From a virus, in the UHGV virus genome UHGV-0342645: 59,919 bases of DNA. One strand, written 5' to 3'. Positions 1-59,075 of this stretch are shown here, piece after piece. The notes beneath the pieces are model-generated. The model did no database searches. It was not told where the DNA came from and saw only the letters and a program-made list of their open reading frames with translations. The first letter of the stretch is position 1. Each line of letters opens with the position of its first letter. Both the position numbers and the translations under genes were made by a program.

Positions 1-124
1 ACACTAATAGCTACAGAACTCTTTTTCATTTCTTATCTCCGTTGTCACCCGTGTGACGTTTTTGGGGCTGAGCCGTCCCAGCCCCGTGTTCGTTAATATA
101 AACCAATCAATTTGGAAGTTGCAA

Positions 125-1621
125 CTATTCTTTATCGGAAGCGTCGTCTTCCTTAGGATCTTTGTTTACTTGCTGCTCTGCGTTTAAATCAGCTTTAGCA
201 TCATCGGGCAGAGGCCACTTCTTAAGCTCTTCTTCAAGAATTGCCATTTCTTCTTCAAAGCTTAGTGTGGTCAAGCCCTGATCAACAAGCCAGCCATGAA
301 TAGACTGCAAGCTGATCGGAGCCTTAAGGTTGCGTGCAGTAATAATTTGAACAAAGTCCTGACCGTTAAACATGCTCTTGGTAAATTCAAGATTAGGCTT
401 AACCACAACCTTCTCTGGATCAGCACCCATCCATTTAGCACAAACCTTCAGCAAGTTTTCCAAACCTGCCGCACCAGTATACGCAATTCGAATCAGGCTA
501 GCGGTACGCGCAGCAATACGCGTTTTCATAGCTTCGCCCGATTCCTGCGTGCTCTTGGTGTTGTTTACCATCTGCCCGGCTTTAATCTGAGCTTCTTGCT
601 TATCCGCTGCTAATGCGAGGCGTTGCTCGGACAAACCGTCACCGCTAACGCCTACATATTTAGCGTCACCACCAATAGCAACGTTAATGACCGCTCCAGG
701 ACCGATGCGCTGAGGGGCTTTATCTCCATTCTCCCCAGTACCGCCAACAACAACTAATGTGTCCTGCCCCTGCATATGCAGACTCTGACGGTAATCAGCA
801 TCACTTCGGTACATGCTTAGGCAGATGTTAGCTAGCCCCAATAATGGTGGCGCTTCCGGTGCTGGGGTAATATCTGTCGTATTAACAAACTGGAAAGGTA
901 TTTCGTCCAGCGTGTTACCTTTATAATAAGGAGCAATCATTTGCCCTTCATCATAATTGGTATTGTTGATAAACAAATGCTGGGAGTAGACCGCCCCACC
1001 TGCAACTTCATCTGTGTCCATCGGGCCTAATTGCAGGACGCGATAACGCTTCTCTTCTTTCCAGTCAAACTGATTGACACGTACAGGACCGCTTTCATCC
1101 AGAACAACCATGTTCAAGTTGATATTGCCTAATTCATCTTTACCATCATCCCAGTTGATAATGGATAAAGCATCATAAACGCTAATATAAGGTCTGTTAT
1201 TTACATCCTCACCTTTCGGCAAGTCCAGCAGCAGGCCCAAACGTCCATTTTTTAACTGCATTTCGTTGATGCGACGTAGCAGAGCAATAATGTCTTCACC
1301 GTCCGCAGTACACAGCTCCCGCATGTACTCCATTTCAGGAGGAAGCTGGATTGTAGGAGGCTTCTGGTGCAACAGACCTAAATTGTTTGTGACCGCACTT
1401 GAATAATCGTCAGGGAAGTTAGCACGCAGACGATAAGCAAGCCAACGTTGAAAGCCCAAATCATTAGGATTATTCATCCCATCAATAATCATGGAAGCTA
1501 AAGGTGGTAGATATTTAACACCTTCTTCCTTAATTTTATCTTCACCCTCATAGCAGTCGTTGCACTTAACCCATGCATCCTTCCACTTGTCATATAGCGG
1601 GTGAGTTGCATCAATACCCAT
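125..1621 (-). CDS. portal protein
   Basis: 498 aa ORF immediately downstream of the large terminase on the same strand; size and synteny are typical of siphophage portals. Confidence 0.75.
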   Translation of the reverse strand: MGIDATHPLYDKWKDAWVKCNDCYEGEDKIKEEGVKYLPPLASMIIDGMNNPNDLGFQRWLAYRLRANFPDDYSSAVTNNLGLLHQKPPTIQLPPEMEYMRELCTADGEDIIALLRRINEMQLKNGRLGLLLDLPKGEDVNNRPYISVYDALSIINWDDGKDELGNINLNMVVLDESGPVRVNQFDWKEEKRYRVLQLGPMDTDEVAGGAVYSQHLFINNTNYDEGQMIAPYYKGNTLDEIPFQFVNTTDITPAPEAPPLLGLANICLSMYRSDADYRQSLHMQGQDTLVVVGGTGENGDKAPQRIGPGAVINVAIGGDAKYVGVSGDGLSEQRLALAADKQEAQIKAGQMVNNTKSTQESGEAMKTRIAARTASLIRIAYTGAAGLENLLKVCAKWMGADPEKVVVKPNLEFTKSMFNGQDFVQIITARNLKAPISLQSIHGWLVDQGLTTLSFEEEMAILEEELKKWPLPDDAKADLNAEQQVNKDPKEDDASDKE

Positions 1622-1632
1622 ATACCCTCCAG

Positions 1633-3192
1633 TTAAATACCGATAGTTTTACCAACACCTGTATAAACAGCTTGATCCAGAACCATATAACGTACTTCAT
1701 CCCCCATATGGTCTTCGCATTCCGTATCAACGTCGTCCTGATCTACTTCATCGCGCGGAAGACTTGGAACCAGCTCAAAGAAATAATTGCAATTATCGAA
1801 AACATACATTGCTGGATTTTCACGTGGTCCCGGCAAAGGTTTACCGTTTGCATCTTCCCGCAACGCGGCTTTAAGAAACTCACGCATTTTCTGCCATCCG
1901 CGTTTACGCGACCCAGCAGATTTATCACTTCTCTTCCAATGGATGCCGTTATACAGCTTGCCGTTGAGACGGATTTTCTTCGCCATTGTTGCAGCGGTGG
2001 AGTTATTGTTCTCCAGATCCCAAATAGAATTATCCGCAGGTCCAGGAACTACACGGTCGTGTATGCCCCAGGCCAATTCCCGCTCCAGTATACCGCTTGC
2101 AATCTCTGAGTCCAGCAAATGTAGACCTTCGTTTGTTTTACCGTTAGTGCCGTACCATTCGTTAATACGGAACAAGTCACCGCGTACAGTAGAGAATGTA
2201 GTACCGTCCTCACGTACAACATCCGAACCGTCACTAATAGCCCACCAGCCAACGGAGAATGGTTTTGAAGAACCCCAGTCGAAAGAACGTGTAATCTTCC
2301 AGCTTGATGGGATTGGGAATGGGCGTATTTTATGAACAGTGCTACGCCACAGATCATCGAACATACCGCCGGAGGTGATATCCCAGCTACCGCCTAACCA
2401 TGCAGCTCGTTTGTTCGGATCTGTGATGGACATAAGCTCTGCAATATATTTCGGGCTCAGGTTTTTGTTCTCGCGGTAAGATCCGAAGATATGGCATTGC
2501 GTCGTAACCACATCTTCCTCTTTCTGCGTCCGCGGGTTAAACACTCGCGTAGTTTTCCTGAGTATCTTACCCATCGGTGCAGCATCAATGAAGCGTTTCT
2601 TAACCCAGTTATGCCCCGCACCAAACGGGTTACTGGTAGCAAATACTTCCAGAGGAATGTCTGGTAAATATGTGACAGTACCGTCCGGATCGATAATTGG
2701 ATTATCTTCGGGTAGGAAGGATGAACGGTTACAGGACATCATTGCTTCAAACAAACGCCCGTCCGGATACTTTGTTAATTCGTTCCATCCGATAAACGGG
2801 TATTCGTGACCATGATAAGACCAATAATCCTTTTCTTTGCAAGCAACACGGAACAGCAATTCTTCCCCAGTGGGCCAAACCCATTTATAATCAGACTTCG
2901 AGCTAAGGAATTTAGCACCATCTTTAAATTCAGGGAACCAACGCTGTGATTTGGTTACAAGGTCATCAAGGTTTTTATATTCACGATCGAATATAATACC
3001 CTTCCAGAATTTACCGTACCCTACGCCAACATTCTTACGGAAACGCATAAGCTGGCAGTCCGTCTTTCCAGGACCGCGAGTACCGTGGTATAAAATGATA
3101 TCAGCAGGACAGGATAGAGCGAGTGTCTGTGAACCTGGATGTGGCTTCCAGACTACTCGCGGCATGTTATCAGGTTGTCGGTTTAGCTCCAT
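1633..3192 (-). CDS. terL: terminase large subunit (ATPase + nuclease)
   Basis: 519 aa; Walker A-like 'HGTRGPGKT' near the N-terminus; sits between a small upstream ORF and the portal. Confidence 0.85.
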   Translation of the reverse strand: MELNRQPDNMPRVVWKPHPGSQTLALSCPADIILYHGTRGPGKTDCQLMRFRKNVGVGYGKFWKGIIFDREYKNLDDLVTKSQRWFPEFKDGAKFLSSKSDYKWVWPTGEELLFRVACKEKDYWSYHGHEYPFIGWNELTKYPDGRLFEAMMSCNRSSFLPEDNPIIDPDGTVTYLPDIPLEVFATSNPFGAGHNWVKKRFIDAAPMGKILRKTTRVFNPRTQKEEDVVTTQCHIFGSYRENKNLSPKYIAELMSITDPNKRAAWLGGSWDITSGGMFDDLWRSTVHKIRPFPIPSSWKITRSFDWGSSKPFSVGWWAISDGSDVVREDGTTFSTVRGDLFRINEWYGTNGKTNEGLHLLDSEIASGILERELAWGIHDRVVPGPADNSIWDLENNNSTAATMAKKIRLNGKLYNGIHWKRSDKSAGSRKRGWQKMREFLKAALREDANGKPLPGPRENPAMYVFDNCNYFFELVPSLPRDEVDQDDVDTECEDHMGDEVRYMVLDQAVYTGVGKTIGI

Positions 3193-3727
3193 CTTCAGTC
3201 TCTTTAACTAGTCGTTGTTGAGACTCGGATGCAGTTTTTTCCCATTCGTCAATATTTGCTACAGCAGGGACTATCATTACGCCGCCTCTGTTAGTAACAT
3301 CAATTTTAGCCTTCTTGGGAGCATCCAAATCATAAATTTGTGCAAGCTTGCCCAATGCGGCTACTCTAGCAGCTTGAGAAGATCCCGGTCCTGTATAATG
3401 AGCTTCACGTTTTAATGCTTCAATGATATGCTGACGCTCTAGGTCTGCTTCAATGTTAGCTTGCTCAGAAGTACGTTGAACACGGGATCTTTCAATCTCC
3501 TTGAGCTTCCATCGAACGTAACAGTCCGTGGCAAAGCGTTGGCCAAGCTCCTGTGCAAACATAGCATTGAACCCGCATCTCATGCAAGCGTTAGTCCAAT
3601 TGTAGTCGAACATATACTCAGCAACAACTTTGTCACGTATTGCCATCTCGTCAGCGGACAAGCTATTTGCATACTGGATATAGTTCGTCCAGTCACGATC
3701 ATATTGCTCTTGACTTGCCCCGTTCAT
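3170..3727 (-). CDS. putative terminase small subunit
   Basis: 185 aa ORF directly upstream of and overlapping terL start by 23 nt; assigned by position only. Confidence 0.45.
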   Translation of the reverse strand: MNGASQEQYDRDWTNYIQYANSLSADEMAIRDKVVAEYMFDYNWTNACMRCGFNAMFAQELGQRFATDCYVRWKLKEIERSRVQRTSEQANIEADLERQHIIEALKREAHYTGPGSSQAARVAALGKLAQIYDLDAPKKAKIDVTNRGGVMIVPAVANIDEWEKTASESQQRLVKETEDGAKPTT

Positions 3728-3747
3728 GGAAGCTCCCCTTCTTATTG

Positions 3748-4053
3748 CTATTTAGGCTGAATATAATTGCTTGATCCTACAAAATCAAGCGAAACATTTT
3801 CAGCTTCATAGCGTATGATTTCCTTAACCCTTAGCTTACATTCGGTCAGAGCAGTTTCTGTATCCTGTAAACGTCGGATAATATCTCTTGTGTAAACCAA
3901 AGGAATTTTCTCAACTTCCCGACATTCCACCAGTAGATGCGCGGGTAGTCTTACCTTCACTATCTGTGGAGCTGGGGGAGGTTGAGTCTGCGTCGAGCAA
4001 CCTGCGCAAATCATCAGGAATACGCTCGTTAAGATAAGCTTTGACGTCAGCAT
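3748..4053 (-). CDS. o-spanin (Rz1-like outer-membrane lipoprotein), embedded in a different frame within the i-spanin gene
   Basis: Internal start MLTSKLILTSVFLMICAGC gives a signal peptide plus lipobox (ICAG|C); Pro-rich after the Cys; nested in the Rz-like ORF as in lambda Rz/Rz1. Confidence 0.5.
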   Translation of the reverse strand: MLTSKLILTSVFLMICAGCSTQTQPPPAPQIVKVRLPAHLLVECREVEKIPLVYTRDIIRRLQDTETALTECKLRVKEIIRYEAENVSLDFVGSSNYIQPK

Positions 4054-4387
4054 TGCTTTTCTCCAGTGTCTGCAACTTGTCCTGAAGCAACTTGTGGTTA
4101 TGTTGTTCATCTTGAATTGCAGAAGTTAGTTTCTTGAAAGAGTCCGTGTCCTTCTCCCTTTGTGCAGCAAGAAATACAACAGCCTCGCCCAGCTTTGCAT
4201 TGTCTTTCTCCACAACGGTTAAACGTTCTTCAGCCAAACTTAAATTTGATTTGTTAAGCTCGTTCTGTGACCACAGGTAGGCAGCCACCCCGCATAAAAA
4301 CACCACCGCGCCAATCATCAGGTACTCGATAAATAGACGCGGTTTAGCTTTTATAAAACTGAAGAAGTTATTTAGAATCATTTTCAT
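3911..4387 (-). CDS. i-spanin (Rz-like): N-terminal TM plus coiled-coil
   Basis: 158 aa; N-terminal hydrophobic segment (LMIGAVVFLCGVAAYLW) then charged coiled-coil-like sequence; follows the holin. Confidence 0.5.
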   Translation of the reverse strand: MKMILNNFFSFIKAKPRLFIEYLMIGAVVFLCGVAAYLWSQNELNKSNLSLAEERLTVVEKDNAKLGEAVVFLAAQREKDTDSFKKLTSAIQDEQHNHKLLQDKLQTLEKSNADVKAYLNERIPDDLRRLLDADSTSPSSTDSEGKTTRASTGGMSGS

Positions 4388-4712
4388 GTTTGCAGTCCTC
4401 TGAGTCGAGTTTGATCCCTGTCCGCGATGCTAGAAGCGACTTTAGAGCTTTTAGCGTAGCACGTGAACCCGCCCAAGCGAATAGGCCAGCAAGGCCAAAA
4501 GCGAACCAAAGGCTGATATTAAACTCCCTGTAGATCGCGTACATTATAACGCCGAAGAACGCGGCGGATAAGCCTTCAAGACATGCAATGCTTAACCGTA
4601 CTTTCTTACCAGCGTCAATTGTGCGCATGACGTAACCGAGAGCTCCCCCAATGAGGGAAATCAGAGCAAACCCCGCTAGAACTGCCCAATGTTCGTTTGA
4701 TGAGTTGAACAT
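4368..4712 (-). CDS. putative holin (3 predicted TM segments)
   Basis: Internal start MFNSSNEHWAVLAGFALISLIGG; about 114 aa with three hydrophobic stretches and a charged C-terminus; lies between the endolysin candidate and the spanins. Confidence 0.5.
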   Translation of the reverse strand: MFNSSNEHWAVLAGFALISLIGGALGYVMRTIDAGKKVRLSIACLEGLSAAFFGVIMYAIYREFNISLWFAFGLAGLFAWAGSRATLKALKSLLASRTGIKLDSEDCKHENDSK

Positions 4713-4748
4713 GTTCCCTCCAATAAAAAGGGGCTGACGCCCCATCAG

Positions 4749-5186
4749 TTAAATTACCATTGCAATAGCGCGGTCGATCACGTCATCAGTATAAGGCATC
4801 ATGCCATTTTCATGACGAATGATTGCTTTCACCAAACCTGACATTATCGTCTTGTCGAAGACATTAATTGGATCGTTGGGTTGAACACCAATTGCTTTGG
4901 CAACAGAACGAATATACGCTTCCGTATCGTTTTCATTAGGCGGAGCCCAGCGAGCGATAATTTCACGTACAGTGTCGATGTTTCTCTTACCCACATTGGG
5001 CAAGCCTTCACGTTTGGTGTAGTTTGTCAGGACTTTCGCCAGAGCGCGGATGCCGTAGATCGGTTGCGTAAATTGCGCAAAAGATTTGTCGGTCCGCTTA
5101 TCAACAGGGACCAATCCCTGCCAATTATCACCCCAGCGAATATTACCTGGATTGTTATTACGAATACCACGAGGTTGAAGCGCCAT
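4749..5186 (-). CDS. putative endolysin / peptidoglycan hydrolase (by position; fold not recognised)
   Basis: Start refined to MALQPRGIRNNNPGNIRW, with GGAGGA RBS 7 nt upstream; the upstream part of the six-frame ORF lacks an RBS. Sits at the head of the holin-spanin cassette. Confidence 0.4.
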   Translation of the reverse strand: MALQPRGIRNNNPGNIRWGDNWQGLVPVDKRTDKSFAQFTQPIYGIRALAKVLTNYTKREGLPNVGKRNIDTVREIIARWAPPNENDTEAYIRSVAKAIGVQPNDPINVFDKTIMSGLVKAIIRHENGMMPYTDDVIDRAIAMVI

Positions 5187-5268
5187 ATCGAGTTCCTCCG
5201 CTTGACATGAACCACTCAAGGGTAACAGAGAAACTTGATACGGCGCAAGGAGAATTGATCTAAGAAGA

Positions 5269-5529
5269 TTACCCGTCAAACCACTCGCCAATGTACCAGC
5301 TAACAAGACCTTTTCCACCTTTATCGACCCCGTAGCTGGAGTAAAAAGTGAAGTTATCGGGTTCGTGTTGCAGGATAACCATAAAGTCATGCTGAGTGTT
5401 GTCAATAATTGCAATAGCGATTTCCTCGTTATCTGTGATAAAGATTTCGCCACCAATTACAACATGCGTCCCGTGGTCAACTACCTTACTATGATAAGCA
5501 GGTGGGATCAGGTGACTGAATGTAGTCAT
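5269..5529 (-). CDS. hypothetical protein
   Basis: 86 aa ORF in the minus-strand operon, tightly packed with neighbours. Confidence 0.4.
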   Translation of the reverse strand: MTTFSHLIPPAYHSKVVDHGTHVVIGGEIFITDNEEIAIAIIDNTQHDFMVILQHEPDNFTFYSSYGVDKGGKGLVSWYIGEWFDG

Positions 5530-5994
5530 TTAAAAACCCTCAAATGATATTGTATCAACTCCCAGGAATGCGCATGTGGTGTGTTTAATTGCTAACTCAA
5601 TAGCTTCGCTCGCACTTGCACCAGCAGCTAACGCGCCAGCAGCAAACACACAACCGCTACCCTCAGATCCCCATCCATCCAGCATGGGTTTGCTCAAAGT
5701 ACCATCATTATAAATAAAATGGCAAGTACCTTCCGGAGTAACCGCAAGACCGCAAGTTTGCCCGTAATCATCATCTTTGCTGTAAAGTTTAATATCAGGG
5801 AACTTAACAGGTTCCGCGCTATTAAAATAACGCAACACCTGATCGGTAAATGCTGTAAGGCCGCACAATCCCAGTAAAAACCGTCCACGATGTCCATTTA
5901 CGCTATGAACTTTCTTATAAGCAGTCACAGCTTCCCCGCGCATAACTCCACGGTCCGCAGCTAATACTTTTCCATCAAACGCAATTGTGGTCAT
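5530..5994 (-). CDS. HslV / proteasome-beta-like Ntn-hydrolase peptidase
   Basis: N-terminus MTTIAFDGKVLAADRG matches the Thr1 nucleophile motif of HslV and 20S beta subunits (TTI..DG.VL.AD.R); 154 aa. Confidence 0.55.
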   Translation of the reverse strand: MTTIAFDGKVLAADRGVMRGEAVTAYKKVHSVNGHRGRFLLGLCGLTAFTDQVLRYFNSAEPVKFPDIKLYSKDDDYGQTCGLAVTPEGTCHFIYNDGTLSKPMLDGWGSEGSGCVFAAGALAAGASASEAIELAIKHTTCAFLGVDTISFEGF

Positions 5995-6176
5995 TTAATT
6001 TTCCTTTGGTCTTGGATAATAACAATGCATAAAACAAATAGAATAAGACAGATACAAAGCCCTGTACTTGCAAAGATTCGGATAACCGTGGAAGGTTGTT
6101 CGACTACTGTATAGGTATAAAGCCCAGCGAACATTAACGTCGCAAATAAAAACAATCCGGCGTATAGTTTGGTCAT
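5991..6176 (-). CDS. small membrane protein
   Basis: 61 aa, two hydrophobic segments; start overlaps the upstream gene stop. Confidence 0.4.
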   Translation of the reverse strand: MTKLYAGLFLFATLMFAGLYTYTVVEQPSTVIRIFASTGLCICLILFVLCIVIIQDQRKIK

Positions 6177-6238
6177 TGTGTACCCCTCTTATTCGATGGG
6201 TACACAATACAATGAAGGGTTATGTGATAGCAAGGTTT

Positions 6239-6661
6239 TTAATTAAGCACAATCTCAACGTCTTTAACCCAAGTATGAATGATAAATGCTCCTGGCTGTT
6301 CAGGATCTTGATCCGGGCCAACGTAGAACTTTTTACCTTCCCAACCTTTAATTGGGTCATGTACAATAAACTTGTGATTAGTTGTATCGATCACAACCTG
6401 ATGCAGTGCTCCAGGAACATTGAGACTTGGGACAGTGCACAAAAACAAACCACCCATGTATATAGTCTCACGCCCACCGCCTACAGAACAGATGTGGTCA
6501 ACATTGTTTTGTACTAAATATTCGGAAATTGTTATTTCCCAGTTGTTGTAATATCGATCATGAAATTCCGCAATTACTTCTTCTACAGGTCTATTAAGGA
6601 TCATTGCTAGACACGCAGAAACGCATGTATTTAAAGAAGGTTGCTTGACGTGTTTAATCAT
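6239..6661 (-). CDS. C39-like (papain-fold) cysteine peptidase domain protein
   Basis: N-terminal QPSLNTCVSACLAMIL matches the Q-x4-C-x-x-AC-L-x-MI signature of peptidase C39 (bacteriocin-processing) domains; 140 aa stand-alone domain. Confidence 0.55.
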   Translation of the reverse strand: MIKHVKQPSLNTCVSACLAMILNRPVEEVIAEFHDRYYNNWEITISEYLVQNNVDHICSVGGGRETIYMGGLFLCTVPSLNVPGALHQVVIDTTNHKFIVHDPIKGWEGKKFYVGPDQDPEQPGAFIIHTWVKDVEIVLN

Positions 6662-6662
6662 T

Positions 6663-7133
6663 TTACGCCTCGTATATGACTTCTGGCTCGTTATTATAAG
6701 GACGCAGCAGCAAACGCGCTACCAGCGACGTACGCTTGCTCAACCCTTGCGGATGCACAAACCCAACAAACTGGTAGTGACAACCGCGCAGGTGGTGCAA
6801 ACTCTTAGCACAATGACACGCTTCCAAACGAAGTGTCTCGCCCGACTGCCATTTAACCACAATAGTAGAGCCCGCGATCATGTTAATTTCTACGTCACCA
6901 ATATCTATTTGAAGACGTAAAAGATCTTCTACAACATTACGGACATAGACAAGGATCTGTGATGTGGGCATAACAATAAGCCCGTTCCAGTCTTTCCCGC
7001 GCCCCAAGCCGCAACGACGTGCGAATCTTGATATTAACTGAGTCTCTGTAACCTGTTTTACTTCAAACGACTTCTTCAGTTGGCAGTCTTTGGATTCGTC
7101 CATTGCATCAACAATAGTTTTAACGTCAGCCAT
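6663..7133 (-). CDS. hypothetical protein
   Basis: 156 aa ORF between the C39-like and SLOG-like genes. Confidence 0.45.
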   Translation of the reverse strand: MADVKTIVDAMDESKDCQLKKSFEVKQVTETQLISRFARRCGLGRGKDWNGLIVMPTSQILVYVRNVVEDLLRLQIDIGDVEINMIAGSTIVVKWQSGETLRLEACHCAKSLHHLRGCHYQFVGFVHPQGLSKRTSLVARLLLRPYNNEPEVIYEA

Positions 7134-7136
7134 TAT

Positions 7137-7529
7137 TTACTCCGCTAATGTGTAAGGAATACCGGATGCTTTAATCTGTCTGTACATGTCCATAGTACCA
7201 GCTCCGCCCGGAAACACAATAGCGTGATCTGGTTTGGGATCAGTATCCAGCATTAATTGATTGCGGTAAGCGCCAGCTTGTGCATTATAAGCACCTCTGG
7301 CGTTATACCGTATCTTAGTATTCGGTAAGGAAAGATTGTCCCACGGCGCAGGAAACGCCTCCGTCTTAATACCGTTCCGCTCCGCCCAATGTGCGCAAAT
7401 GCGGTCAACACCGTCAGCGTCACCGTGGCGAAGTGTGGTTATCCTTCTTTGCATATGCAGCTTATCCAATTGAGCATAGATATACTCCACATTCTTAAAA
7501 TTACGACCTCCGGTAACAACTAATAGCAT
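7137..7529 (-). CDS. SLOG/DUF2493-like Rossmann-fold protein (YspA/DprA-like nucleotide-binding fold)
   Basis: MLLVVTGGR...HGDADGVD...FPGGAGT pattern typical of SLOG-superfamily proteins; 130 aa. Confidence 0.4.
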   Translation of the reverse strand: MLLVVTGGRNFKNVEYIYAQLDKLHMQRRITTLRHGDADGVDRICAHWAERNGIKTEAFPAPWDNLSLPNTKIRYNARGAYNAQAGAYRNQLMLDTDPKPDHAIVFPGGAGTMDMYRQIKASGIPYTLAE

Positions 7530-7592
7530 TATTTCTTCTCCAATGGTTTCAACATTTCGTCAATAAAACCTTTCCAATATTTGATATTTTCT

Positions 7593-8066
7593 TCAATCAA
7601 CAATAATCTCCTTAAAACGGTTATACAAATCACGATAGAACAAAGGACCATTAGCATTGCGACGCAGGAAGTCCTTTGCTACAGCTTCCAGAGCTTCGCA
7701 GCGATCACGCAACTCTTGAGCCTTCTTCTCGGTATGCGCCCACACCTCTTCGCTGGTCACACCCGGCGGATTCATTGCACCAACAATTTGACGCAAACGA
7801 ATATAAGAATCGGATAAAGCGTGTTCAGCAGCACGCATGTCGACAAGGTTAGTTTCAGCATTTTCGGCACGTTCTTCCTGAGCTCGCCATTCTGCTTCTA
7901 GCTGGTCAATGCGCATATCACGATAACCCAGTTCCGCAGCAATATCACCTTTGCTGTGCAAACCTTCGGATGTCATTGCCATAACATGACGGGAGTAATA
8001 ACCTCCAGCTTGATCCAGTTCCCAAGCGTCGCGTTCTAAATCATAGCATTTATTTTTCTGTGACAT
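7593..8066 (-). CDS. hypothetical protein (coiled-coil)
   Basis: 157 aa ORF; no recognisable motif. Confidence 0.45.
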   Translation of the reverse strand: MSQKNKCYDLERDAWELDQAGGYYSRHVMAMTSEGLHSKGDIAAELGYRDMRIDQLEAEWRAQEERAENAETNLVDMRAAEHALSDSYIRLRQIVGAMNPPGVTSEEVWAHTEKKAQELRDRCEALEAVAKDFLRRNANGPLFYRDLYNRFKEIIVD

Positions 8067-8352
8067 ATGTAGTAATCTCCTTCAGCGTATCGCGCCAGTC
8101 CGCACCTTCAAGGTCAACTTCACCGCAGTAGCGACACTTATCACCATCATACAGCCATTCTTTAAGTTGTTCATATGCTTTAGGCTTACTATTATAACAG
8201 TGGACAACACCGTTAGCATCCACTGCAATGTGAGTAGCCCAAGGTGCCACAGGGATTTCCTGACCAAAAAACAGGACTTTGATTGCAGTTTTAGAATCGA
8301 CCGCAGGGATATCCGGTTTTTCTCGATTTAAATCCATTCCTAAATAAAGCAT
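8050..8352 (-). CDS. hypothetical protein, member of a 3-copy small paralog family (shares the ..AVD.NG.V.CY...P... VDLEG.DW..TL.E pattern with 8683..8964 and 29405..29659)
   Basis: 100 aa; motifs HIAVDANGVVHCYNSKP and GEVDLEGADWRDTLKE recur in the other two ORFs. Confidence 0.5.
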   Translation of the reverse strand: MLYLGMDLNREKPDIPAVDSKTAIKVLFFGQEIPVAPWATHIAVDANGVVHCYNSKPKAYEQLKEWLYDGDKCRYCGEVDLEGADWRDTLKEITTYVTEK

Positions 8353-8403
8353 AACAACCTCCAGATAATTAAGGGCTCCGTAGAGCCCATTATAGATTGA
8401 TAA

Positions 8404-8682
8404 TTACACTTCCTCCAGGAAATTGGCGCCTACAAGACCAGTATAACTGATTTCGTAAGCATCCTCTTCTTCATCGTATTCATCGCTACCCTGGCTAACA
8501 ATTACAGTATGGTTCCACTGCCCGAAAAGGCTATGCAGATCAAACACCACCTTATTAACAGTAACAATAGAACCAGCTTTCAGTTCCCGGAACTCAACAC
8601 CATCGCCCGGAGCATACCCAACACCGCCAATATCAGTCAGTAAACGATACTCTTTACCTTCAACAATCTCTTCTACACGCAT
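8404..8682 (-). CDS. hypothetical protein
   Basis: 92 aa acidic ORF. Confidence 0.4.
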   Translation of the reverse strand: MRVEEIVEGKEYRLLTDIGGVGYAPGDGVEFRELKAGSIVTVNKVVFDLHSLFGQWNHTVIVSQGSDEYDEEEDAYEISYTGLVGANFLEEV

Positions 8683-8964
8683 TTAAGCCTCCGAACTAAC
8701 ATTAACTAAAGAATTTACCCAACGACCTTCTTCGAAAGGAAACTCGCCAATAAAGACGGATTTACCCGTATCCTCATACCATCTGTCGTAATCGTCGTAT
8801 CCGTCTATATAAGGCTCATTTTCATAAGCATAGAGCTCTTCACACTTATCAACCGCGAGCCAGTTAGCCCAGACAGGCACTACAACCCGAGTCCCGAAAT
8901 AGTTAACAACCTTTTCATCATATTCTACACGCATTCTTCTTTCCTCTATATATTTTTCTGCCAT
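8683..8964 (-). CDS. hypothetical protein, paralog family member (WLAVDKCEELYAYENEP)
   Basis: 93 aa; shares the LAVDK..E.YE.EP motif with 8050..8352 and 29405..29659. Confidence 0.45.
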   Translation of the reverse strand: MAEKYIEERRMRVEYDEKVVNYFGTRVVVPVWANWLAVDKCEELYAYENEPYIDGYDDYDRWYEDTGKSVFIGEFPFEEGRWVNSLVNVSSEA

Positions 8965-9302
8965 TGACGAACAGTTTCTAACATAGATTTATAATCGTCA
9001 TCCCAATCATAATTCTCAACATCTTTTTGAAGTTTGGCGATCATTTCTTCAAGGCTGTTAGCTGGTAAGTAGCTTTCACCAAATGCAGCAAGACGTTTGT
9101 GATAATCGGGGCTTTGTTCATCCACCCAGCCAAATTCAGCTTCAAATGAATCACAACCCGAGCACGATCCATAAGAACCTTCACAAACCCCCAATACACC
9201 ATCTTTTCTTATCAGGGCAAGCCATTCACCCTGATAACAACCAAACTCAACAAAATCTAATACTTCGCATCCAGCAGCTTCTAATGCTAATTGATAAGAC
9301 AT
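8946..9302 (-). CDS. hypothetical protein
   Basis: 118 aa ORF. Confidence 0.45.
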   Translation of the reverse strand: MSYQLALEAAGCEVLDFVEFGCYQGEWLALIRKDGVLGVCEGSYGSCSGCDSFEAEFGWVDEQSPDYHKRLAAFGESYLPANSLEEMIAKLQKDVENYDWDDDYKSMLETVRQWQKNI

Positions 9303-9670
9303 TCTTCTTGCTCCTCTACATATTTAGTGACACATTTTTGAAAATTAAGAACGATATTTTTCTCTTTTACGGAGTGAAATTTAACACGTTCCGGGCAGAT
9401 AATCCAGCCTTCAAAACGTTGAGTAGCGTCATTCCATGCAGCACGACCATAATAGCCGCGATATGGACCTAATCGCATTGCATTTACCTCTGTAACCACA
9501 TTGCTGGAGGTGCTGGGTGTAGCGCTTACACTGGAGTCGCACATAATACCTCCTTGATGCTCTAAAAACAGGTGTGAATTGATAGAAATTGCTTGCATCC
9601 GCTTAAAGATGGTAGCTATGGAGCAGCTACAAGACGAATTATACGTTGACGACTCAGAATTTACTACCAA
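9287..9670 (-). CDS. hypothetical protein
   Basis: 127 aa ORF. Confidence 0.45.
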   Translation of the reverse strand: MVVNSESSTYNSSCSCSIATIFKRMQAISINSHLFLEHQGGIMCDSSVSATPSTSSNVVTEVNAMRLGPYRGYYGRAAWNDATQRFEGWIICPERVKFHSVKEKNIVLNFQKCVTKYVEEQEECLIN

Positions 9671-9878
9671 AATCCATATATTTGACGGTTATAGTGAATA
9701 TGCCATGTTTAATATTGTCCGTGAGATACAAATTACTATCCAATTCCTCTTTAGTGTACAGATAAGCATTACTTACTTCATCTGTAAGTCCTTGCATCGG
9801 AGCAAGCAGCCACCAACCCCTCCAGTCAAACATAGGCGATTTATCAGACACTCTTAATATATAACGTTTATTATTCAA
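9654..9878 (-). CDS. hypothetical protein
   Basis: 74 aa ORF. Confidence 0.4.
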   Translation of the reverse strand: MNNKRYILRVSDKSPMFDWRGWWLLAPMQGLTDEVSNAYLYTKEELDSNLYLTDNIKHGIFTITVKYMDFGSKF

Positions 9879-9898
9879 ACCAATACCTTGTCACCAGA

Positions 9899-9994
9899 CT
9901 AATTTCGCATTGCTAGTACAACAATTAGCACCATTAACATTGCTCCAGCTACCATACCGAGCACAAATACACTAGCTAATCCGATTAAACTCAT
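9899..9994 (-). CDS. 31-aa hydrophobic micro-protein (MSLIGLASVFVLGMVAGAMLMVLIVVLAMRN)
   Basis: Not in the ORF track (<60 aa); GGAGA RBS 9 nt upstream of the ATG; a single predicted TM helix; heads the minus-strand operon. Confidence 0.3.
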   Translation of the reverse strand: MSLIGLASVFVLGMVAGAMLMVLIVVLAMRN

Positions 9995-10281
9995 TTCAAT
10001 ATCTCCGATCAGTTTTATATCATCCATATTTTAACACTAAACCCAGTATATAGAAAGCGTGAAATACTCAAGGGTCCGTTTTTAAGGTAGGTGGGGTCAT
10101 GGATGTAGGTGGATAGTAAAGTGATGGGTGAGATTTAGACAAGGACTTACTATCAGGATGGACAGGGCACGCCCCAGCGCTCCAAGTACCTGGAAAAGGA
10201 TGGGTCGGGTTGCGCGGCTGGGCCTGCGTGGGTCGGTGTGCGCTGTGCGAGCTGTGCGCCACGCTGTGCGCCTGTTTCACC

Positions 10282-10320
10282 CGAGCTAATGCATTACCAT
10301 TGCCTATATGCATTAGCTCG
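10282..10320. repeat. perfect 13-bp-stem hairpin (CGAGCTAATGCAT-13 nt loop-ATGCATTAGCTCG) preceded by a GC-rich island with 4x CTGTGCG tandem motifs (10237-10275)
   Basis: Read directly from the sequence; local GC content is far above the genome background. Confidence 0.6.
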
Positions 10321-10340
10321 CTAGCGTGGCGCTGTGTGTG

Positions 10341-10499
10341 TTATAGCGCCGCTCCTCCTTTGCGGGCTTTACGTGCTGCATAACGCTGTTCCCTTACTTC
10401 GTTGTATTGGCGATCCCATTTAGCATCCATTACTTCGGTTACGATCAGTGCTACCAGTGGACTTACTACTGCGATAACCATCATAATTAAAATTAACAT
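10341..10499 (-). CDS. 52-aa small membrane protein (MLILIMMVIAVVSPLVALIVTEVMD...)
   Basis: Not in the ORF track (<60 aa); GGAG RBS about 10 nt upstream; hydrophobic N-terminus and basic C-terminus. Confidence 0.3.
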   Translation of the reverse strand: MLILIMMVIAVVSPLVALIVTEVMDAKWDRQYNEVREQRYAARKARKGGAAL

Positions 10500-10548
10500 T
10501 TTGTTTACTCCGTTATTTGGTTGATGTATGTAGTATCCACCAGACCGA

Positions 10549-10731
10549 TCACGATGTCCAGATGTTTTGGTCGATTAATTTTGCATAGAAGTCGCGCCCT
10601 GTCTGCATGGCTTGGGACCAGTTGGTTTCTTCCCATTCCATGCGCATAACCTGCAATAATAACGCGTGTTGTGCGCGGGTAAGTTTGTTTTTACTGGACA
10701 TAATATACCTCTGCATAGTTAAGTTAGCCAT
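10549..10731 (-). CDS. hypothetical small protein (first minus-strand gene after the divergent promoter region)
   Basis: 60 aa; AAAGGGG RBS upstream of the ATG. Confidence 0.4.
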   Translation of the reverse strand: MANLTMQRYIMSSKNKLTRAQHALLLQVMRMEWEETNWSQAMQTGRDFYAKLIDQNIWTS

Positions 10732-10798
10732 TTTGTGTACCCCTTTAAGTTAAGTTTTACTGTATTACCTTGCTATGTGTATATAGTAATGCTAGACC

Positions 10799-10827
10799 TA
10801 AAACTTGCCAAGTGTTTTTGCACTTTT
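10799..10827 (+). promoter_or_regulatory. sigma70-like promoter candidate (TTGCCA-17 nt-TATAAA) in the divergent intergenic region
   Basis: -35 at 10799-10804 and -10 at 10822-10827; AT-rich surroundings; sits between divergently oriented gene blocks. Confidence 0.35.
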
Positions 10828-10948
10828 TATAAAAATATTTTGGCACCTTTTATGCCTGCGTGTGCGTGCCCGCGCGTATAGTGCAATTCGTGTGATGTTA
10901 GTTAGGCCGTTTGTGCTAAACATGCAGGGCAAGCATAATTTTCACTAG

Positions 10949-11206
10949 ATGCAAAACAATATCAAAATAGCACTTTTGGCCTATTCAATATCACGATGCA
11001 AGGCTATTATTACTTCAACAAAGCAATACTGCTTAACCACATTAGGTAGCATCATGGAATTCAAATTAGTGGGACTCGAGTCCGGTAAAATAGCTGGTTA
11101 TGTATCTGCTCCAAGCTGGGAAGAGGCCGAAATCTTCTTAATGGGTCAGTTCGATATGTACATTAGCGAAATTTACAAAGAATACGATTTAGTCCAAATT
11201 AAGTGA
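10949..11206 (+). CDS. hypothetical protein
   Basis: 85 aa; first plus-strand ORF after the divergent region; weak RBS. Confidence 0.35.
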   Translation: MQNNIKIALLAYSISRCKAIITSTKQYCLTTLGSIMEFKLVGLESGKIAGYVSAPSWEEAEIFLMGQFDMYISEIYKEYDLVQIK

Positions 11207-11274
11207 TTTATATCTTGCCTAGTTGATACGACTGGGCAATAATAAGTCAACTTAAACAAAACGAGGATTACATC

Positions 11275-11523
11275 ATGGCTACTTCTATCGTCACCAAATT
11301 TTTGGCACCAACTAACACCAAAGGCGCACGCATTGCAGTTAAAGGTTTTGGCAAGCGCAAAGTCTATAGCTGGGACTATGCACTCGACGTAACGCTTAAC
11401 CATAAAGCAGCGGTACAGCAGTTCCTCAAAGCGTTTAACGCCGAAAACGACACCGACTATGGCATCGTTGCTTTCGCAAGCATGGATATCGCAACCGCCG
11501 ATTTCGTAGCAATCGTGCAGTAA
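11275..11523 (+). CDS. hypothetical protein
   Basis: 82 aa; GAGGA RBS upstream. Confidence 0.5.
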   Translation: MATSIVTKFLAPTNTKGARIAVKGFGKRKVYSWDYALDVTLNHKAAVQQFLKAFNAENDTDYGIVAFASMDIATADFVAIVQ

Positions 11524-11595
11524 GTTTTCTTATACACTGCTCATCATTACGGTGGGCAGTAATAAGCAAACTAACATTAACGAAAGGAGATATAC

Positions 11596-12169
11596 CATGT
11601 CTAAAGTAACTCACCGCGAACAGGACAAAATGCGCTACACCATGAAAACGAATGCACGCCGCGCCCTTAAGACCCGTTGGGGCCAGGTTGCACGCGATGC
11701 ACACGAACAGTTAATCCATCAGGACGATATCGGTTTTTACATCGTCGAAAAGGAAGTCCTTCAGGTTCTGCGCGACCATGAAAAAGCTCAAAAGCCGGAG
11801 CAGAAAGTCCCAGCACCGACCGCCGCGCCAGCTGCCCGCGTCTCGGTACTGCGCCCGATGGTAAATCCGGAAATCGTCAAAAGCTGCCTCGAAGCTCTGG
11901 AGCAGGAGGAAGAGAAAGATATGAAACACGCAAAAGCTGCCGCACCAAAACAGGATGCAAAAGCTGCTCGCTGTGATTTCAAAAATGGCGCTCGCAAGCC
12001 GCTCAAAGGAAAAACTGCCGAAGTGTGGGCAATGGGTGACAAACTTCTGAAGGAACTGGGCCGCACGCCGGAGCTGAAAGAAATGAAAGCTGCAATGCCT
12101 TCTTACAACGGGACAACTGTTGCCATTCAGTTCTACGCCTGGCGCAAATATAACGACCTGGACGCATAA
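11596..12169 (+). CDS. hypothetical protein
   Basis: Start refined to MSKVTHREQ, with AGGAGA RBS; 191 aa. Confidence 0.5.
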
Positions 12170-14474: not shown

Positions 14475-16817
14475 ATGGAACTGTTTCCCGCTGAAATTAA
14501 AGCTTTCCCACAATGGGCGGTCGCTGATGCGGATAAAAAGCCGCTTGTATGGGACAACGATATCGGACGTTTGATGGCGGCGGACGTTACCGATCCGGAT
14601 ATGCTAATGACGTTTGAAGCTGCCAAAGGTTGCGCTGCTCATTTCAATAAACCTTATATTGGCTTCGTGCTTACTGCGCAAGACCCGTTCACCTGCATCG
14701 ACCTGGATGTAAAGAACGCAACCAATGAACCTGATCCCAAGAAGCACACGACGCCGGAACAGTTGCGCCGCTTCGAACAGATTATGACCGCGTTCGATAC
14801 TTACACCGAAGTAAGTCGCTCAGGATTGGGCGTCCACCTGTGGTTAAGAGGTAACATCGGTAAAGGTCGTCGGCGTGATGGTGTCGAGGTTTATAGTCAG
14901 GAGCGTTTTATTATCTGCACGGGTAATCCTGTCTATAACAAACCAGTTGCAGAACGTGATCATTATCTTACTATGCTTGTGAATGAAATTGATCTTCAGC
15001 GCAAGACATATGAAATTGAACTGGTAGAAAAAGATCCGGTAGAAGACGACGCAACTATTCACCAGCGTGCGCTTGAAGCAGACAACGGCGATAAGTATGC
15101 ACGCCTCTTCAATGGTGAATGGGTTGAAATGGGATTCCCTTCCCAGTCTGAAGCAGATCTTGCCCTTATTTCCATGTATGCATTCTACACAGAAAGTAAT
15201 GAGCAATGTCGTCGTCTCTTCCGTTACAGTGCACTGGGCAAACGTGAGAAGGCTAATAAGAACAATGTTCATATTGACCGTTGTTTACGCATGTGTCGTG
15301 GTCGCATGGAACGTGAGCGCATTGCTCAGGAAAACGTAGCGGCGCTGGCGCGGGATTACGCTGCCCGTATGCAAGCCGCACACAGTGCAATGCAGCAGGT
15401 AACAGAAATGCCTGTAACCGTCGAAACAACACAGGGGCAGACAGTAGTTGCAGAAAGCACATCCGTTGATGCAACAGCTATTGAATGGCCGCCGGGGCTT
15501 GCTGGTGAGCTTGCTAAATATATATACAAAGCATCCGTCAGACCAGTGAAAGAAATCTCTATTGTTACCTCGCTCGGATTTATGGCTGGGGTATGCGGGA
15601 AAGTATGGCAGATCCCGCAATCCGGTCTTAATGGATATTTTGTCTTAATTGCTCGTTCTGGTGTTGGTAAAGAGACGTTGAACAGTGGGCTGTCTAATAT
15701 AGTTAGCCAGATTCAGGACCAGTTTCCGCAGATTCATAGCTTTGTATCTTTTGATAGATGCGCTTCTGGATCTGCACTGCGTAAATCTTTTGCAGACAAA
15801 CAATCTTTTATCAACCTGAATGGTGAGTTCGGTAAGATTATCAAAGCAATGGCAACGGCTCCAGCAGGCTCGCCGATGCAAAGTTTCAAGAATGACCTTA
15901 CCGATGTTTATCAAAAGTCCGGTCAGATGTCTATCGTTGGTGGTATGTCTTATTCTGATAAGGCTAATAATACTGAAGCTCAACAAGGTGTGGCATATAG
16001 CATCATGGGCGAAACGACACCGGATACGTTCTTTGAAGCATTAACCCGTGAAATGATGGAGGATGGATTCTTATCCCGTTTCCATGTTGTACGCTATGAA
16101 GGTGATCGACCGCCTTTAAACAAAAATCAGCAGACTACAATGGATCAGCATTTGAAGGACATGGTGTGCCATCTTGTTAACCACACTTTAGTAACAATGG
16201 CAAAGCATCAGAGTATTGAAGTACAGTTTAGCCCGGATGCGGAAGCATTATGCGATCAGTTTAACGATGAATGTGATCGCAATATTAACGCAACCAAAGA
16301 CGAAGCAATCCGTCAGCCGTGGAACCGTGCTCACCTGAAGGTCTTGCGACTTTCTGCCTTGTTAGCCGTGGGTGAGAACTGGATCAATCCGGTGGTACAA
16401 ACCTATCATGTGCAATGGGCTTTGGACTTCGTGCGTCATGGGCAGGATATTATTATGAAGGAATGGCATAGCGGAGGCATTGGGACTAATGATGAAGCTC
16501 GTATCCGTACTATGTGTCAGGTCTGTGTGAATTATCTAACTAAAGACTGGGTGAAAGTTAAACGTGTAGATTTGCGCAAAGAAGGTATTATCACGCGAGG
16601 GGATATTACTACGCGTCTTGCAAGTAAGTCCGCGTTTAAAAACTATCATCACGGATTATCCGCTGCAATCGAGTCTACAATCAAGGAGATGGTTGCTATG
16701 GGTGCACTTGTTCCGGTAACACGGGAGGAGACTATTAAACTGGGATTTACTGGGGTAGCTTGGCGCATTACGCAAGATGTTGAAGGAATTATGGCAAACT
16801 TAGGTGAAGAGGAATAA
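14475..16817 (+). CDS. bifunctional primase-polymerase (prim-pol) N-terminal domain fused to a D5-like P-loop helicase
   Basis: 780 aa. N-terminal FVLTAQDPFTCIDLDVK (DxD acidic motif of prim-pol domains); central Walker A ARSGVGKET; the size matches phage primase/helicases. Confidence 0.75.
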   Translation: MELFPAEIKAFPQWAVADADKKPLVWDNDIGRLMAADVTDPDMLMTFEAAKGCAAHFNKPYIGFVLTAQDPFTCIDLDVKNATNEPDPKKHTTPEQLRRFEQIMTAFDTYTEVSRSGLGVHLWLRGNIGKGRRRDGVEVYSQERFIICTGNPVYNKPVAERDHYLTMLVNEIDLQRKTYEIELVEKDPVEDDATIHQRALEADNGDKYARLFNGEWVEMGFPSQSEADLALISMYAFYTESNEQCRRLFRYSALGKREKANKNNVHIDRCLRMCRGRMERERIAQENVAALARDYAARMQAAHSAMQQVTEMPVTVETTQGQTVVAESTSVDATAIEWPPGLAGELAKYIYKASVRPVKEISIVTSLGFMAGVCGKVWQIPQSGLNGYFVLIARSGVGKETLNSGLSNIVSQIQDQFPQIHSFVSFDRCASGSALRKSFADKQSFINLNGEFGKIIKAMATAPAGSPMQSFKNDLTDVYQKSGQMSIVGGMSYSDKANNTEAQQGVAYSIMGETTPDTFFEALTREMMEDGFLSRFHVVRYEGDRPPLNKNQQTTMDQHLKDMVCHLVNHTLVTMAKHQSIEVQFSPDAEALCDQFNDECDRNINATKDEAIRQPWNRAHLKVLRLSALLAVGENWINPVVQTYHVQWALDFVRHGQDIIMKEWHSGGIGTNDEARIRTMCQVCVNYLTKDWVKVKRVDLRKEGIITRGDITTRLASKSAFKNYHHGLSAAIESTIKEMVAMGALVPVTREETIKLGFTGVAWRITQDVEGIMANLGEEE

Positions 16818-16819
16818 AT

Positions 16820-16839
16820 AAAGGGCCTTCCGGCCCTTT
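16820..16839. terminator. bidirectional hairpin between convergent genes (AAAGGGCC-TTCC-GGCCCTTT)
   Basis: Stem-loop directly after the stop at 16817 and at the end of minus gene 16838..17068. Confidence 0.4.
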
Positions 16840-17068
16840 ATTGGTAGTTAAGATAGTAATCATGGATGTCGTACCTTGCCATAATTTCGGATGCTTCCGC
16901 CGCACTTTCCGCTTCTTCATAAGCTTGCTCAGCGTCGTCATAAGTACCGTAATACATCCAACCTTCACCCATTGGACGGATATATGCTTCAAATTTGCCA
17001 GTACGCGGGTGACGTACAACTTTATAATCTGCGCCCATTGTGCTATATACTTTATTCAGCATGACCAT
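16838..17068 (-). CDS. opposite-strand moron: stand-alone AP2-type DNA-binding domain protein
   Basis: 76 aa on the minus strand with a strong RBS (ACGGAGGA). YKVVRHPRTGKFEAYIR..GW.YYGTYDDAEQAYEEAESAA matches the AP2 domain consensus (YRGV...W.A.I.......LGTF.T.EEAA.AYD.AA). Confidence 0.5.
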   Translation of the reverse strand: MVMLNKVYSTMGADYKVVRHPRTGKFEAYIRPMGEGWMYYGTYDDAEQAYEEAESAAEASEIMARYDIHDYYLNYQ

Positions 17069-29659: not shown

Positions 29660-29872
29660 ATGATCACTTTAGAAGAAGCGAAACAGCATCAGGAAATGAT
29701 CACTGAGATTGTAGAAAAACTTAATTCTGCAATTGCTCACGCTACTATGCAGGGTGTACATGTTGAATTAGATATTAACCACGTTAGCACAATCGGAGCA
29801 CGCAATCATCCGATTGTGCTGTCAAATGTAACAATTAATCCTTGTGATATTAAAGGTGTAGAAGATGAATGA
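29660..29872 (+). CDS. hypothetical small protein (tandem paralog A)
   Basis: 70 aa; similar pattern to the next ORF (..L..AI..A...H.EL.I....). Confidence 0.4.
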   Translation: MITLEEAKQHQEMITEIVEKLNSAIAHATMQGVHVELDINHVSTIGARNHPIVLSNVTINPCDIKGVEDE

Positions 29873-58953: not shown

Positions 58954-59075
58954 ACTTGTCTCCAGGAAAAGGATTGATTTGTTTACTGTTGGTAGCCTTT
59001 CCCCGTGGAAGGCTGTTTAGGAACCCGTGTCCCTGATGTGTTGAAACTTAACATCAGGGACGTCGGGATGTCAAC

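Follow-up and report, generated by a model that had tools for sequence, protein, structure and literature searches.

A conserved non-coding element in the leftward early operon of Seuratvirus coliphages that resembles a Rho-dependent terminator or attenuator

The leftward early operon of the virus genome UHGV-0342645, a stretch of 59,919 nucleotides (nt) that is referred to in full as the window, carries a 260-base element that is a real, conserved, and previously unrecognised non-coding unit (Table 1). An earlier model-made reading of the letters alone, hereafter the original prediction, had drawn attention to a GC-rich island with repeats and a perfect hairpin. This island is the right half of the larger element and its replaceable, dispensable part, and a universal C-rich core that lies mostly outside the predicted coordinates is most likely the part that matters. 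Judged by its anatomy, the element most likely fits a Rho-dependent stop best, and not a packaging site or an origin. In the reading that we tentatively prefer, it would be a Rho loading site with a 3′-protective hairpin, i.e., a Rho-dependent terminator or attenuator in the leftward early operon.

By similarity to deposited genomes, the window is a Seuratvirus coliphage of the CAjan/Seurat group. BLAST with positions 9000–12000 recovered 35 phage records at 85–96% identity, and all but one of the records inspected belong to the Queuovirinae, genus Seuratvirus (CAjan, Seurat, slur01, BASEL Bas23-25, and others); the relatives' records run in reverse orientation to the window. Seuratviruses, among them CAjan, Seurat, and several BASEL phages, are models for 7-deazaguanine DNA modification and candidates for therapy. 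Minus-strand genes occupy positions 1–10740 and 39900–59919 and plus-strand genes about 10950–39400, a map of gene orientation that marks ~10740–10950 as the putative divergent early promoter region. The GC-rich island lies ~0.4–0.7 kilobases (kb) into the leftward early operon.

On the minus strand, the element runs from the stop codon TAA of the upstream gene (10343–10341) to ...ACCCCACCTACCT and sits in a non-coding gap of ~313–345 nt, so that the conserved unit exceeds the island first reported. It is present as a single copy in the genome and is conserved in ~45 relatives, of which 36 phage records were found by BLAST and further loci by scans of IMG/VR and of metagenomes. In the 15-mer scan of IMG/VR, 117 of the 120 hits were chance matches; a gapped pattern was specific, though two of its 12 metagenome hits were also due to chance. 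BLAST against plasmids (72,556) and E. coli genomes (5,426) found no homologs. The alignment set comprised 28 homologs (16 GenBank relatives, two IMG/VR contigs, and ten metagenome contigs), 21 with the short form of the element that is also found in the window and seven with an alternative (alt) form. The short form measures ~240–290 nt, and 25 GenBank records cover at least 81% of the query. In the alt form, of ~400 nt, an unrelated sequence replaces segment 10168–10285, i.e., the GC island and the 5′ arm of the hairpin, and brings with it another 11-base-pair (bp) hairpin without U-tract and a leftward promoter (TAGCCA-18-TATAAT). It is carried by eight phages in GenBank (SA126VB, SHIN8, Skure, Dru_SM1, GottfriedDienst, SLUR25, SLUR63, and ECP2304), which match the query by BLAST at positions 57–141 only, and by three metagenome contigs. 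Divergent members that are ~75% identical (Salmonella phage STP-SP5, Hafnia phage yong3, and contig L143) retain the core motifs AGGTAGGTGGGGT, GAGATTT, and ACTATCAGGATGGA (as read on the plus strand) together with AAGTACC and GGGTCGGGT. Only the left core and the last ~50 nt are universal to all forms. The core DNA is ~75–77% identical in yong3 and STP-SP5, where the adjacent 205-aa protein is only 54–62% identical, and the core thus appears to be more conserved than the neighbouring coding DNA. Lack of conservation or free deletability, which the original prediction had named as grounds for dropping its proposal, applies by half: most relatives have kept the island, but natural replacement of it also occurs.

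Table 1 Coordinates of the element, its parts, and the adjacent features in the window
Feature	Position	Strand	Remarks
Whole conserved non-coding element (short form)	10085..10344	-	Delimited by alignments; mosaic flanks on both sides
Universal left core	10085..10168	-	In short, alt, and divergent forms; RNA extremely C-rich and G-poor; putative Rho utilization (rut) tract
GC-rich island proper	10165..10280	-	RNA C-rich and CA-rich, with repeated CGCACAGC
Direct-repeat cluster G(G/C)TGTGCG	10235..10270	+	Starts at 10235, 10242, 10251, 10263
Stable hairpin	10282..10320	-	13-bp perfect stem, 13-nt loop; no U-tract on either strand
Outer 10-bp inverted repeat around hairpin	10256-10265 / 10323-10332	-	Perfect only in the window
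Membrane-type open reading frame (ORF), 52 aa, upstream of element	10341..10499	-	phrog_7482, E=7.7e-9; stop codon inside the conserved element
First conserved small early ORF	10549..10731	-	phrog_37795, E=1.4e-25; always upstream of the element in relatives
Extended -10-like TGnTAAAAT	10028..10036	-	Conserved in all type A left flanks, the window included
Tiny membrane ORF, downstream of element	9899..9995	-	5′ region common to relatives with an HNH gene

The element is non-coding, as had been proposed for the island. Its annotation in GenBank is inconsistent and ranges from minus-strand ORFs of 58–126 aa through plus-strand ORFs and a “terminator” to nothing at all; even among the records that present it as a protein gene, which include CAjan, Seurat, and WildeMaa, the lengths and strands of the ORFs differ. 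Indels of 31 nt, ~16–22 nt, and, upstream of 10200, 1 nt break the frames in relatives. None of the six frames had a significant synonymous excess (best p 0.06–0.11 over the indel-free stretch 10203–10286, with 18 changes and limited power). Neither ORF across the element matched a PHROG family, whereas the flanking tiny ORFs did. The minus-strand ORF starts inside the hairpin, and that on the plus strand is without its ATG in SA80RD, cut short in yong3, and missing from the alt forms; neither has a Shine-Dalgarno sequence. Codon-phase counts, six-frame counts of synonymous and nonsynonymous changes, ORF integrity, and Pfam and PHROG searches, tests of low power, together led us to reject a protein-coding gene, with a small residual chance left to a plus-strand ORF of 29 aa.

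The RNA of the leftward transcript is exceptional in composition rather than in global structure. In the left core, a window of 78 nt on the leftward sense strand holds 30 C and only 5 G (C=30–31 and G=5–6 across the counts), the largest excess of C over G in the genome (z ~4.9); when the whole genome is read on the sense strand, its C-minus-G value of 25 is followed by 19 as the second highest. Two runner-up windows near 16.9 kb and 12.4 kb, considered as further Rho sites, were discarded as orientation artefacts because they lie inside opposite-strand ORFs nested in the plus-strand block. The C excess is kept in 28 of 28 variants, including indel, alt, and divergent forms (C=27–39 against G=5–17 in the best window of each), and in the adjacent coding RNA G exceeds C. 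These C-rich tracts are no more structured than shuffled sequences (z -0.73 for the left core and +0.94 for the island). The minimum free energy of the element as a whole gave z-scores of -1.5 and -0.7 on the two strands, and the RNAalifold covariation term was -0.06 in each orientation (20 distinct homologs), which ruled out a globally structured non-coding RNA. No Rfam family matched within 10000–10400 even at E up to 10 (cmscan over 9000–12000), and ARAGORN found no tRNA or tmRNA. Since Rfam matches are lacking, the z-scores weak, and covariation close to zero, the RNA is not globally folded and only local hairpins stand out.

The most prominent of these is the perfect hairpin described originally, which was recovered with arms CGAGCTAATGCAT (10282–10294) and ATGCATTAGCTCG (10308–10320). 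It is the longest perfect hairpin of the genome, a stem of 13 bp being reached in none of 30 block-shuffled genomes, and compared with shuffles it folds with a z of -3.2 (minus strand) or -3.9 (plus strand). Other perfect hairpins of 11–12 bp with loops of 11–13 nt occur in the window at 29786–29820, 59029–59061, and 6175–6208. The perfect 13-bp stem is found only in the window and one metagenomic relative; other relatives have 10–12 bp, and STP-SP5 combines a similar loop with an upper stem of another sequence that is also fully complementary. Coaxial lower stems lengthen the duplex to ~21–23 bp in the window and most relatives. They differ between the window, in which the C at 10260 is unique, and the relatives, which have other short lower stems or none, and they are lost in KS_A3 and contig L146. 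No U-run follows the hairpin on either strand (tails GGGTGAAACAGG on the minus and CTAGCGTGGCGC on the plus strand). Like an intrinsic terminator, the element has a stable GC-containing hairpin just after a stop codon, and the depositor of SA80RD annotated it as one, but without a U-tract this identification was rejected, and a terminator scanner gave no call. The same genome has textbook intrinsic terminators elsewhere, for instance at 16818–16840.

The island, for its part, is as unlike the genome in composition as first described, and its quoted sequence was found in place. GC content reaches 0.67–0.71 in 100-nt windows, the value of 0.71 at 10165–10264 tying for the genome maximum (genome mean 0.444, standard deviation 0.063). 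The reported CTGTGCG repeats are present, but as clustered direct repeats and not in tandem: Tandem Repeats Finder detected none at a minimum score of 30. There are three exact copies of GCTGTGCG at 10242, 10251, and 10263 (spacing 9 and 12) and two with one mismatch at 10235 and 10331 (10331–10338). Over the genome, GCTGTGCG occurs at chance level (45 observed, 44.2 expected), and its clustering alone is unusual; two to three copies of GCTGTGC are retained in the divergent relatives STP-SP5, yong3, and L143. Four GGG runs at 10201–10233 raised the possibility of a G-quadruplex, which was dismissed since they are not conserved in VogelGryff, contig L147, STP-SP5, and yong3.

The termination factor Rho loads on untranslated C-rich RNA, and the leftward transcript over the spacer should therefore be a strong Rho substrate. 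From the anatomy, composition, and conservation of the element and its lack of coding capacity and global fold, we infer the following course of Rho loading, termination, trimming, and regulatory use. Ribosomes would stop at the TAA at 10343–10341, and ~20 nt further on the RNA would fold into the stable stem-loop (10320–10282) without U-tract, after which ~200 nt of unstructured, C-rich, and G-poor RNA would emerge. Host Rho would load on this tract and terminate or attenuate transcription further downstream, at ~10000–10085, and 3′-5′ exonucleases would trim the transcript back to the hairpin, which would stabilise the upstream message. The element would in this way separate the first few tiny early genes from the ~20 early genes downstream.

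Rho-dependent 3′ ends in E. coli lie right after stable stem-loops that lack U-tracts, with rut sites immediately downstream (Dar & Sorek 2018, PMC6061677); E. coli Rho-dependent terminators are also the subject of Peters et al. 2012, here as cited in PMC6061677. The element shares with them a U-less stem-loop after a stop codon, a region of C over G directly downstream, an untranslated and poorly structured tract of more than 80 nt, and an enterobacterial host that has Rho. It differs in that the C enrichment of the host sites is “mild” (PMC6061677) and that of the element far stronger, and in that its tract, ~200 nt long and part of a phage early operon, shows sequence-level conservation with discrete motifs. 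The anatomy looked for in a Rho-dependent terminator is thus present in all parts: an untranslated tract, C-rich and G-poor over at least ~70–80 nt, with little structure and with a U-less stem-loop upstream. Three further observations support the Rho reading. The alt forms exchange the island for another U-less 11-bp hairpin while retaining the C-rich core, which fits a generic role for the island. Substitutions in the stems of relatives at pairs 1, 2, and 11 give G-U pairs on the minus-strand RNA only, and A-C mismatches on the plus strand. Genes are oriented leftward throughout 1–10740. The original prediction had offered four functions, a packaging site, an origin, a regulatory RNA structure, and a recombination hotspot, and an RNA-level, transcription-related reading comes closest to the evidence. 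The leftward RNA is indeed untranslated and the hairpin stands directly upstream of the most C-rich tract; of the two specific forms of regulatory RNA, the antiterminator finds no support, nothing like boxA having been found nearby, and an RNase III site would be a putative one, since the lower stems that would bring the duplex to ~20 bp are not conserved.

In phage lambda, the terminators tR1 and tL1 with their nut sites are Rho-dependent stops that follow the first early genes. The element resembles them in its position, with one to four small genes and a few hundred nt between it and the divergent early promoters, and in combining a hairpin with C-rich, rut-like RNA, and it could likewise divide immediate-early from delayed-early transcription. 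Unlike a lambda nut site, it contains nothing like boxA (no match to CGCTCTTA with up to one mismatch in 9900–10800), and its 13-bp stem with 13-nt loop is unlike the 15-nt boxB. A nut-type antitermination site was rejected on these two counts. Further differences are that no N-like arginine-rich protein was identified, that the hairpin is replaceable in relatives, and that the two systems have no sequence similarity.

Several points weigh against a Rho-dependent terminator. A literature search found no transcript, Rho, or bicyclomycin data for any Seuratvirus, and a search on Seuratvirus termini, transcriptome, and origin likewise returned nothing relevant. The motifs ACTATCAGGATGGA, AGGTAGGTGGGGT, GGGTCGGGT, and AAGTACC are conserved even at ~75% overall identity, which is more than a rut site defined by composition needs. 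The promoter of the alt form would fire straight into the C-rich core, an arrangement less suited to a simple terminator than to a leader or attenuator under regulation. A consensus scan found no sigma-70 promoter downstream of the element, so that the ~20 genes there might depend on read-through. The strand signal from wobble pairs is mixed: the plus strand is favoured both by hairpin pair 13 and by a possible long-range helix, and one stem variant is mismatched on both strands. Finally, no comparable tract was found in JenP2 of the sister genus Nonagvirus.

The motif conservation in particular bears on a second reading, which we consider unlikely. Here, the core (10085–10168), with its invariant ACTATCAGGATGGA, AGGTAGGTGGGGT, and GGGTCGGGT, would be a sequence-specific switch rather than a generic rut, either a phage leader or attenuator of a new kind or the replication origin of this 7-deazaguanine-modified group. 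As a leader, it could let a phage or host factor control the access of Rho and hence the transition from immediate-early to delayed-early transcription; in both versions, the GC island and hairpin would be an exchangeable accessory module. The evidence that speaks against an origin, given below, concerns the island only and leaves an origin at the universal left core untouched. A DnaA-box-like TATCCACC at 10106–10114 was considered and rejected, being variable or deleted in relatives.

That the element acts as DNA, in cis, appears unlikely to us in more general terms as well. It would then be an origin or primosome-loading site in which the GCTGTGCG cluster or the G-rich motifs serve as iterons, or a region where proteins bind to control the neighbouring early promoters. 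A single-copy, non-coding sequence that is conserved at the sequence level with specific motifs, keeps clustered direct repeats in divergent relatives, and places a hairpin beside an AT-rich stretch would suit such a role, as would its location: the divergent early promoter region is ~0.5 kb away, and the minimum of the cumulative GC skew is also near. The phage also encodes a primase-polymerase/D5-type helicase (14475–16817), and iteron-type origins are known to be served by primase-helicase initiators, e.g., the ori of satellite phage P4, with which the element shares clustered short direct repeats in single copy per genome. In JenP2 (KP719133), three 19-nt direct repeats resembling GCTACCTGGTATGTTCGGC, spaced by 26–27 nt, lie at 3371–3442 in the equivalent, divergent intergenic region of 605 nt; they are iteron- or operator-like and have TACCTGG in common with the Seuratvirus element. 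As an origin, however, the island itself is disfavoured: repeats and hairpin are replaced in eight isolated phages and dispensable in the alt forms, the spacing of the repeats is irregular (7, 9, 12) with no tandem array, and there is no similarity to plasmid or chromosomal origins. The GC-skew minimum is at ~13 kb, and the switch in skew follows from gene orientation, which counts against an origin. Two alleles of the primase-helicase exist in the genus, at least 98.5% and ~76–78% identical to that of the window, and they assort independently of element form and flank type, a sign of extensive mosaicism. Short and alt forms thus do not track the alleles (98.5% and ~78% identity to that of the window), and this speaks against an origin or a packaging role of the island; an iteron-type origin in the island was rejected on spacing, replacement, and lack of co-variation with the primase-helicase.

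A role in RNA processing or stability alone leaves the conserved C-rich 200 nt and the universal core unexplained, and we regard it as quite unlikely. The hairpin would then be a site for RNase III or RNase E, or would stabilise the mRNA and so cause differential decay of the early polycistron without Rho. It is significantly stable, widely kept, and placed between cistrons, and in most relatives it reaches ~21 bp, interrupted by internal loops, through two short lower stems (GCGCC/GGCGC and CGCU/GGCG). A duplex with internal loops resembles the early RNase III sites of phage T7, which are likewise intercistronic hairpins in an early polycistron. The lower stems of the element are not conserved, being lost in KS_A3 and L146 and different in the window; yong3 and L143 have no such hairpin or only a weak one, the alt forms have another sequence in its place, and the long C-rich tail has no counterpart in T7.

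Both flanks of the element are mosaic; four or more different genes occur upstream of it, and its left flank is of two types. Recombinant junctions also occur inside it: KS_A3 and L146 have an alt-type right end, and contigs L138 and L141, of the alt form, have a short-type one. In a passive sense only, the proposed recombination hotspot is borne out by these junctions at and inside the element; no Chi site was found near it. Genes for HNH homing endonucleases are inserted directly left of the element in SA80RD, WildeMaa, Skure, and Dru_SM1. These observations would agree with a conserved linker that has no dedicated function other than to offer homologous sequence for the exchange of accessory modules, its composition being incidental. 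Such a linker is decidedly improbable: the extreme composition survives indels and relatives of ~75% identity, and the core is seemingly better conserved than the adjacent coding DNA, whereas purely neutral linkers should decay.

A product of the plus strand is, in our judgement, highly improbable. It would be either a G-rich non-coding RNA with GGA-rich, CsrB-like motifs (e.g., CAGGAUGG), the left end of which pairs with the hairpin loop, or the 29-aa arginine-rich ORF with its ATG at 10200. Nearly all cells (98.7%) are paired in a long-range helix, AGGUAGGUG x CAUURCCU, of whose eight pairs five vary by wobble only; hairpin pair 13 and the AUUAUUAG/CUGAUGAU hairpin of the alt form are fully paired on the plus strand only. 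No indels occur in 10200–10289 among 18 close relatives, and synonymous and nonsynonymous changes in the plus-strand ORF stand at 9:9 where a ratio of 0.34 is expected (p=0.11). However, no plus-strand promoter was found, the changes in the long-range helix are one-sided wobbles without compensatory double changes, and, because G/U-rich strands easily give wobble-tolerant helices, the helix is weak evidence. The covariation term is ~0 and the fold z is -0.66; the best-conserved GGA is GAA in STP-SP5, which counts against a CsrA sponge, and the ORF suffers from the losses and the missing Shine-Dalgarno sequence and PHROG match noted above.

The proposed pac or cos recognition site is scarcely credible, since only generic features (GC-richness, repeats, a hairpin) favour it, the island is replaceable in viable phages, and most relatives' deposited records end at ~3728, in the interval from the lysis cassette to a 185-aa ORF upstream of large terminase-sized genes. 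The record of Seurat ends at 3911, and both positions are ~6.4 kb away from the island, record ends being a proxy for termini that may partly reflect convention. The likely location of the cos/pac region, as far as record ends can tell, is the 183-nt interval (3728–3910) that separates the spanin gene from the 185-aa ORF and at which most of these records start or end.

Recognition of one conserved non-coding unit tidies the inconsistent GenBank annotations and marks a likely boundary between early transcription units. If Rho is used there, a virulent coliphage would be exploiting host Rho for the timing of its own early genes. As a natural site of module swapping, the element could also serve as a tolerated insertion point in phage engineering.

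On the downstream side of the element, the tiny membrane ORF probably starts at ATG 9995, which is preceded by a GGAG ribosome-binding site, and not at ATG 10027. The TGnTAAAAT motif is well placed before this GGAG and ATG and is a possible promoter for the downstream genes; it was missed by the consensus promoter scanner, which demands a match at -35. In the four relatives with an HNH gene, the start of that gene coincides with the position of the ORF's ATG, and both have the 5′ leader in common. The type B left flank, absent from the window, has a small hairpin ~90 nt downstream of the element (1095–1130 in locus L001 and equivalents), the stem of which varies yet stays complementary (GTAGCT/AGCTAC; GTACC/GGTAC in STP-SP5; GCGCTA/TAGCGT in L143) and is followed by a conserved CATCTTTAAGCGGATG.

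Within the element, the left core of WildeMaa has a run of ~13 G in place of CATGGATGTAGGTGGATAG, which may be an artefact of sequencing or assembly or else a genuine slippage tract. The alt-form hairpin CAGGCCGTACG-CGTTAA-CGTACAGCCTG (1449–1486 in locus L004) is found as its reverse complement in Dru_SM1, which suggests inversion or template switching at a palindrome. Pantoea phage Vid5 (MG948468) has a C-rich tract (C=29, G=6) at 2930–3110 with AAGGTGGGTGGGGTCGG, GACTATCAGG, and CTGATAGTAAG that resembles the core of the element; it was not significant in nhmmer and was not counted as a homolog. In the same phage, a minus-strand ORF is annotated at 3977..4537, within 3977–4558, where the conserved homolog of window positions 11552–12169 is on the plus strand (4016..4558).

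In the window, the divergent early promoter region (10794–10878) contains an inverted repeat (AGACCTAAAACTTGCCAA / TTGGCACCTTTTATGCCT), a direct repeat (AAGTGTTTTTGCAC / AAATATTTTGGCAC, 23 nt apart), a second small GC-rich patch (GCCTGCGTGTGCGTGCCCGCGCG), and TGGCAC-N5-ATGC, which resembles a sigma-54 -24/-12 element. Downstream of the primase gene, window positions 16817–17068 contain the textbook intrinsic terminator (16818–16840), which reads AAAGGGCCTTCCGGCCCTTTATT, and a minus-strand ORF of 76 aa (16838..17068) that lies within the plus-strand block and has a strong Shine-Dalgarno sequence.

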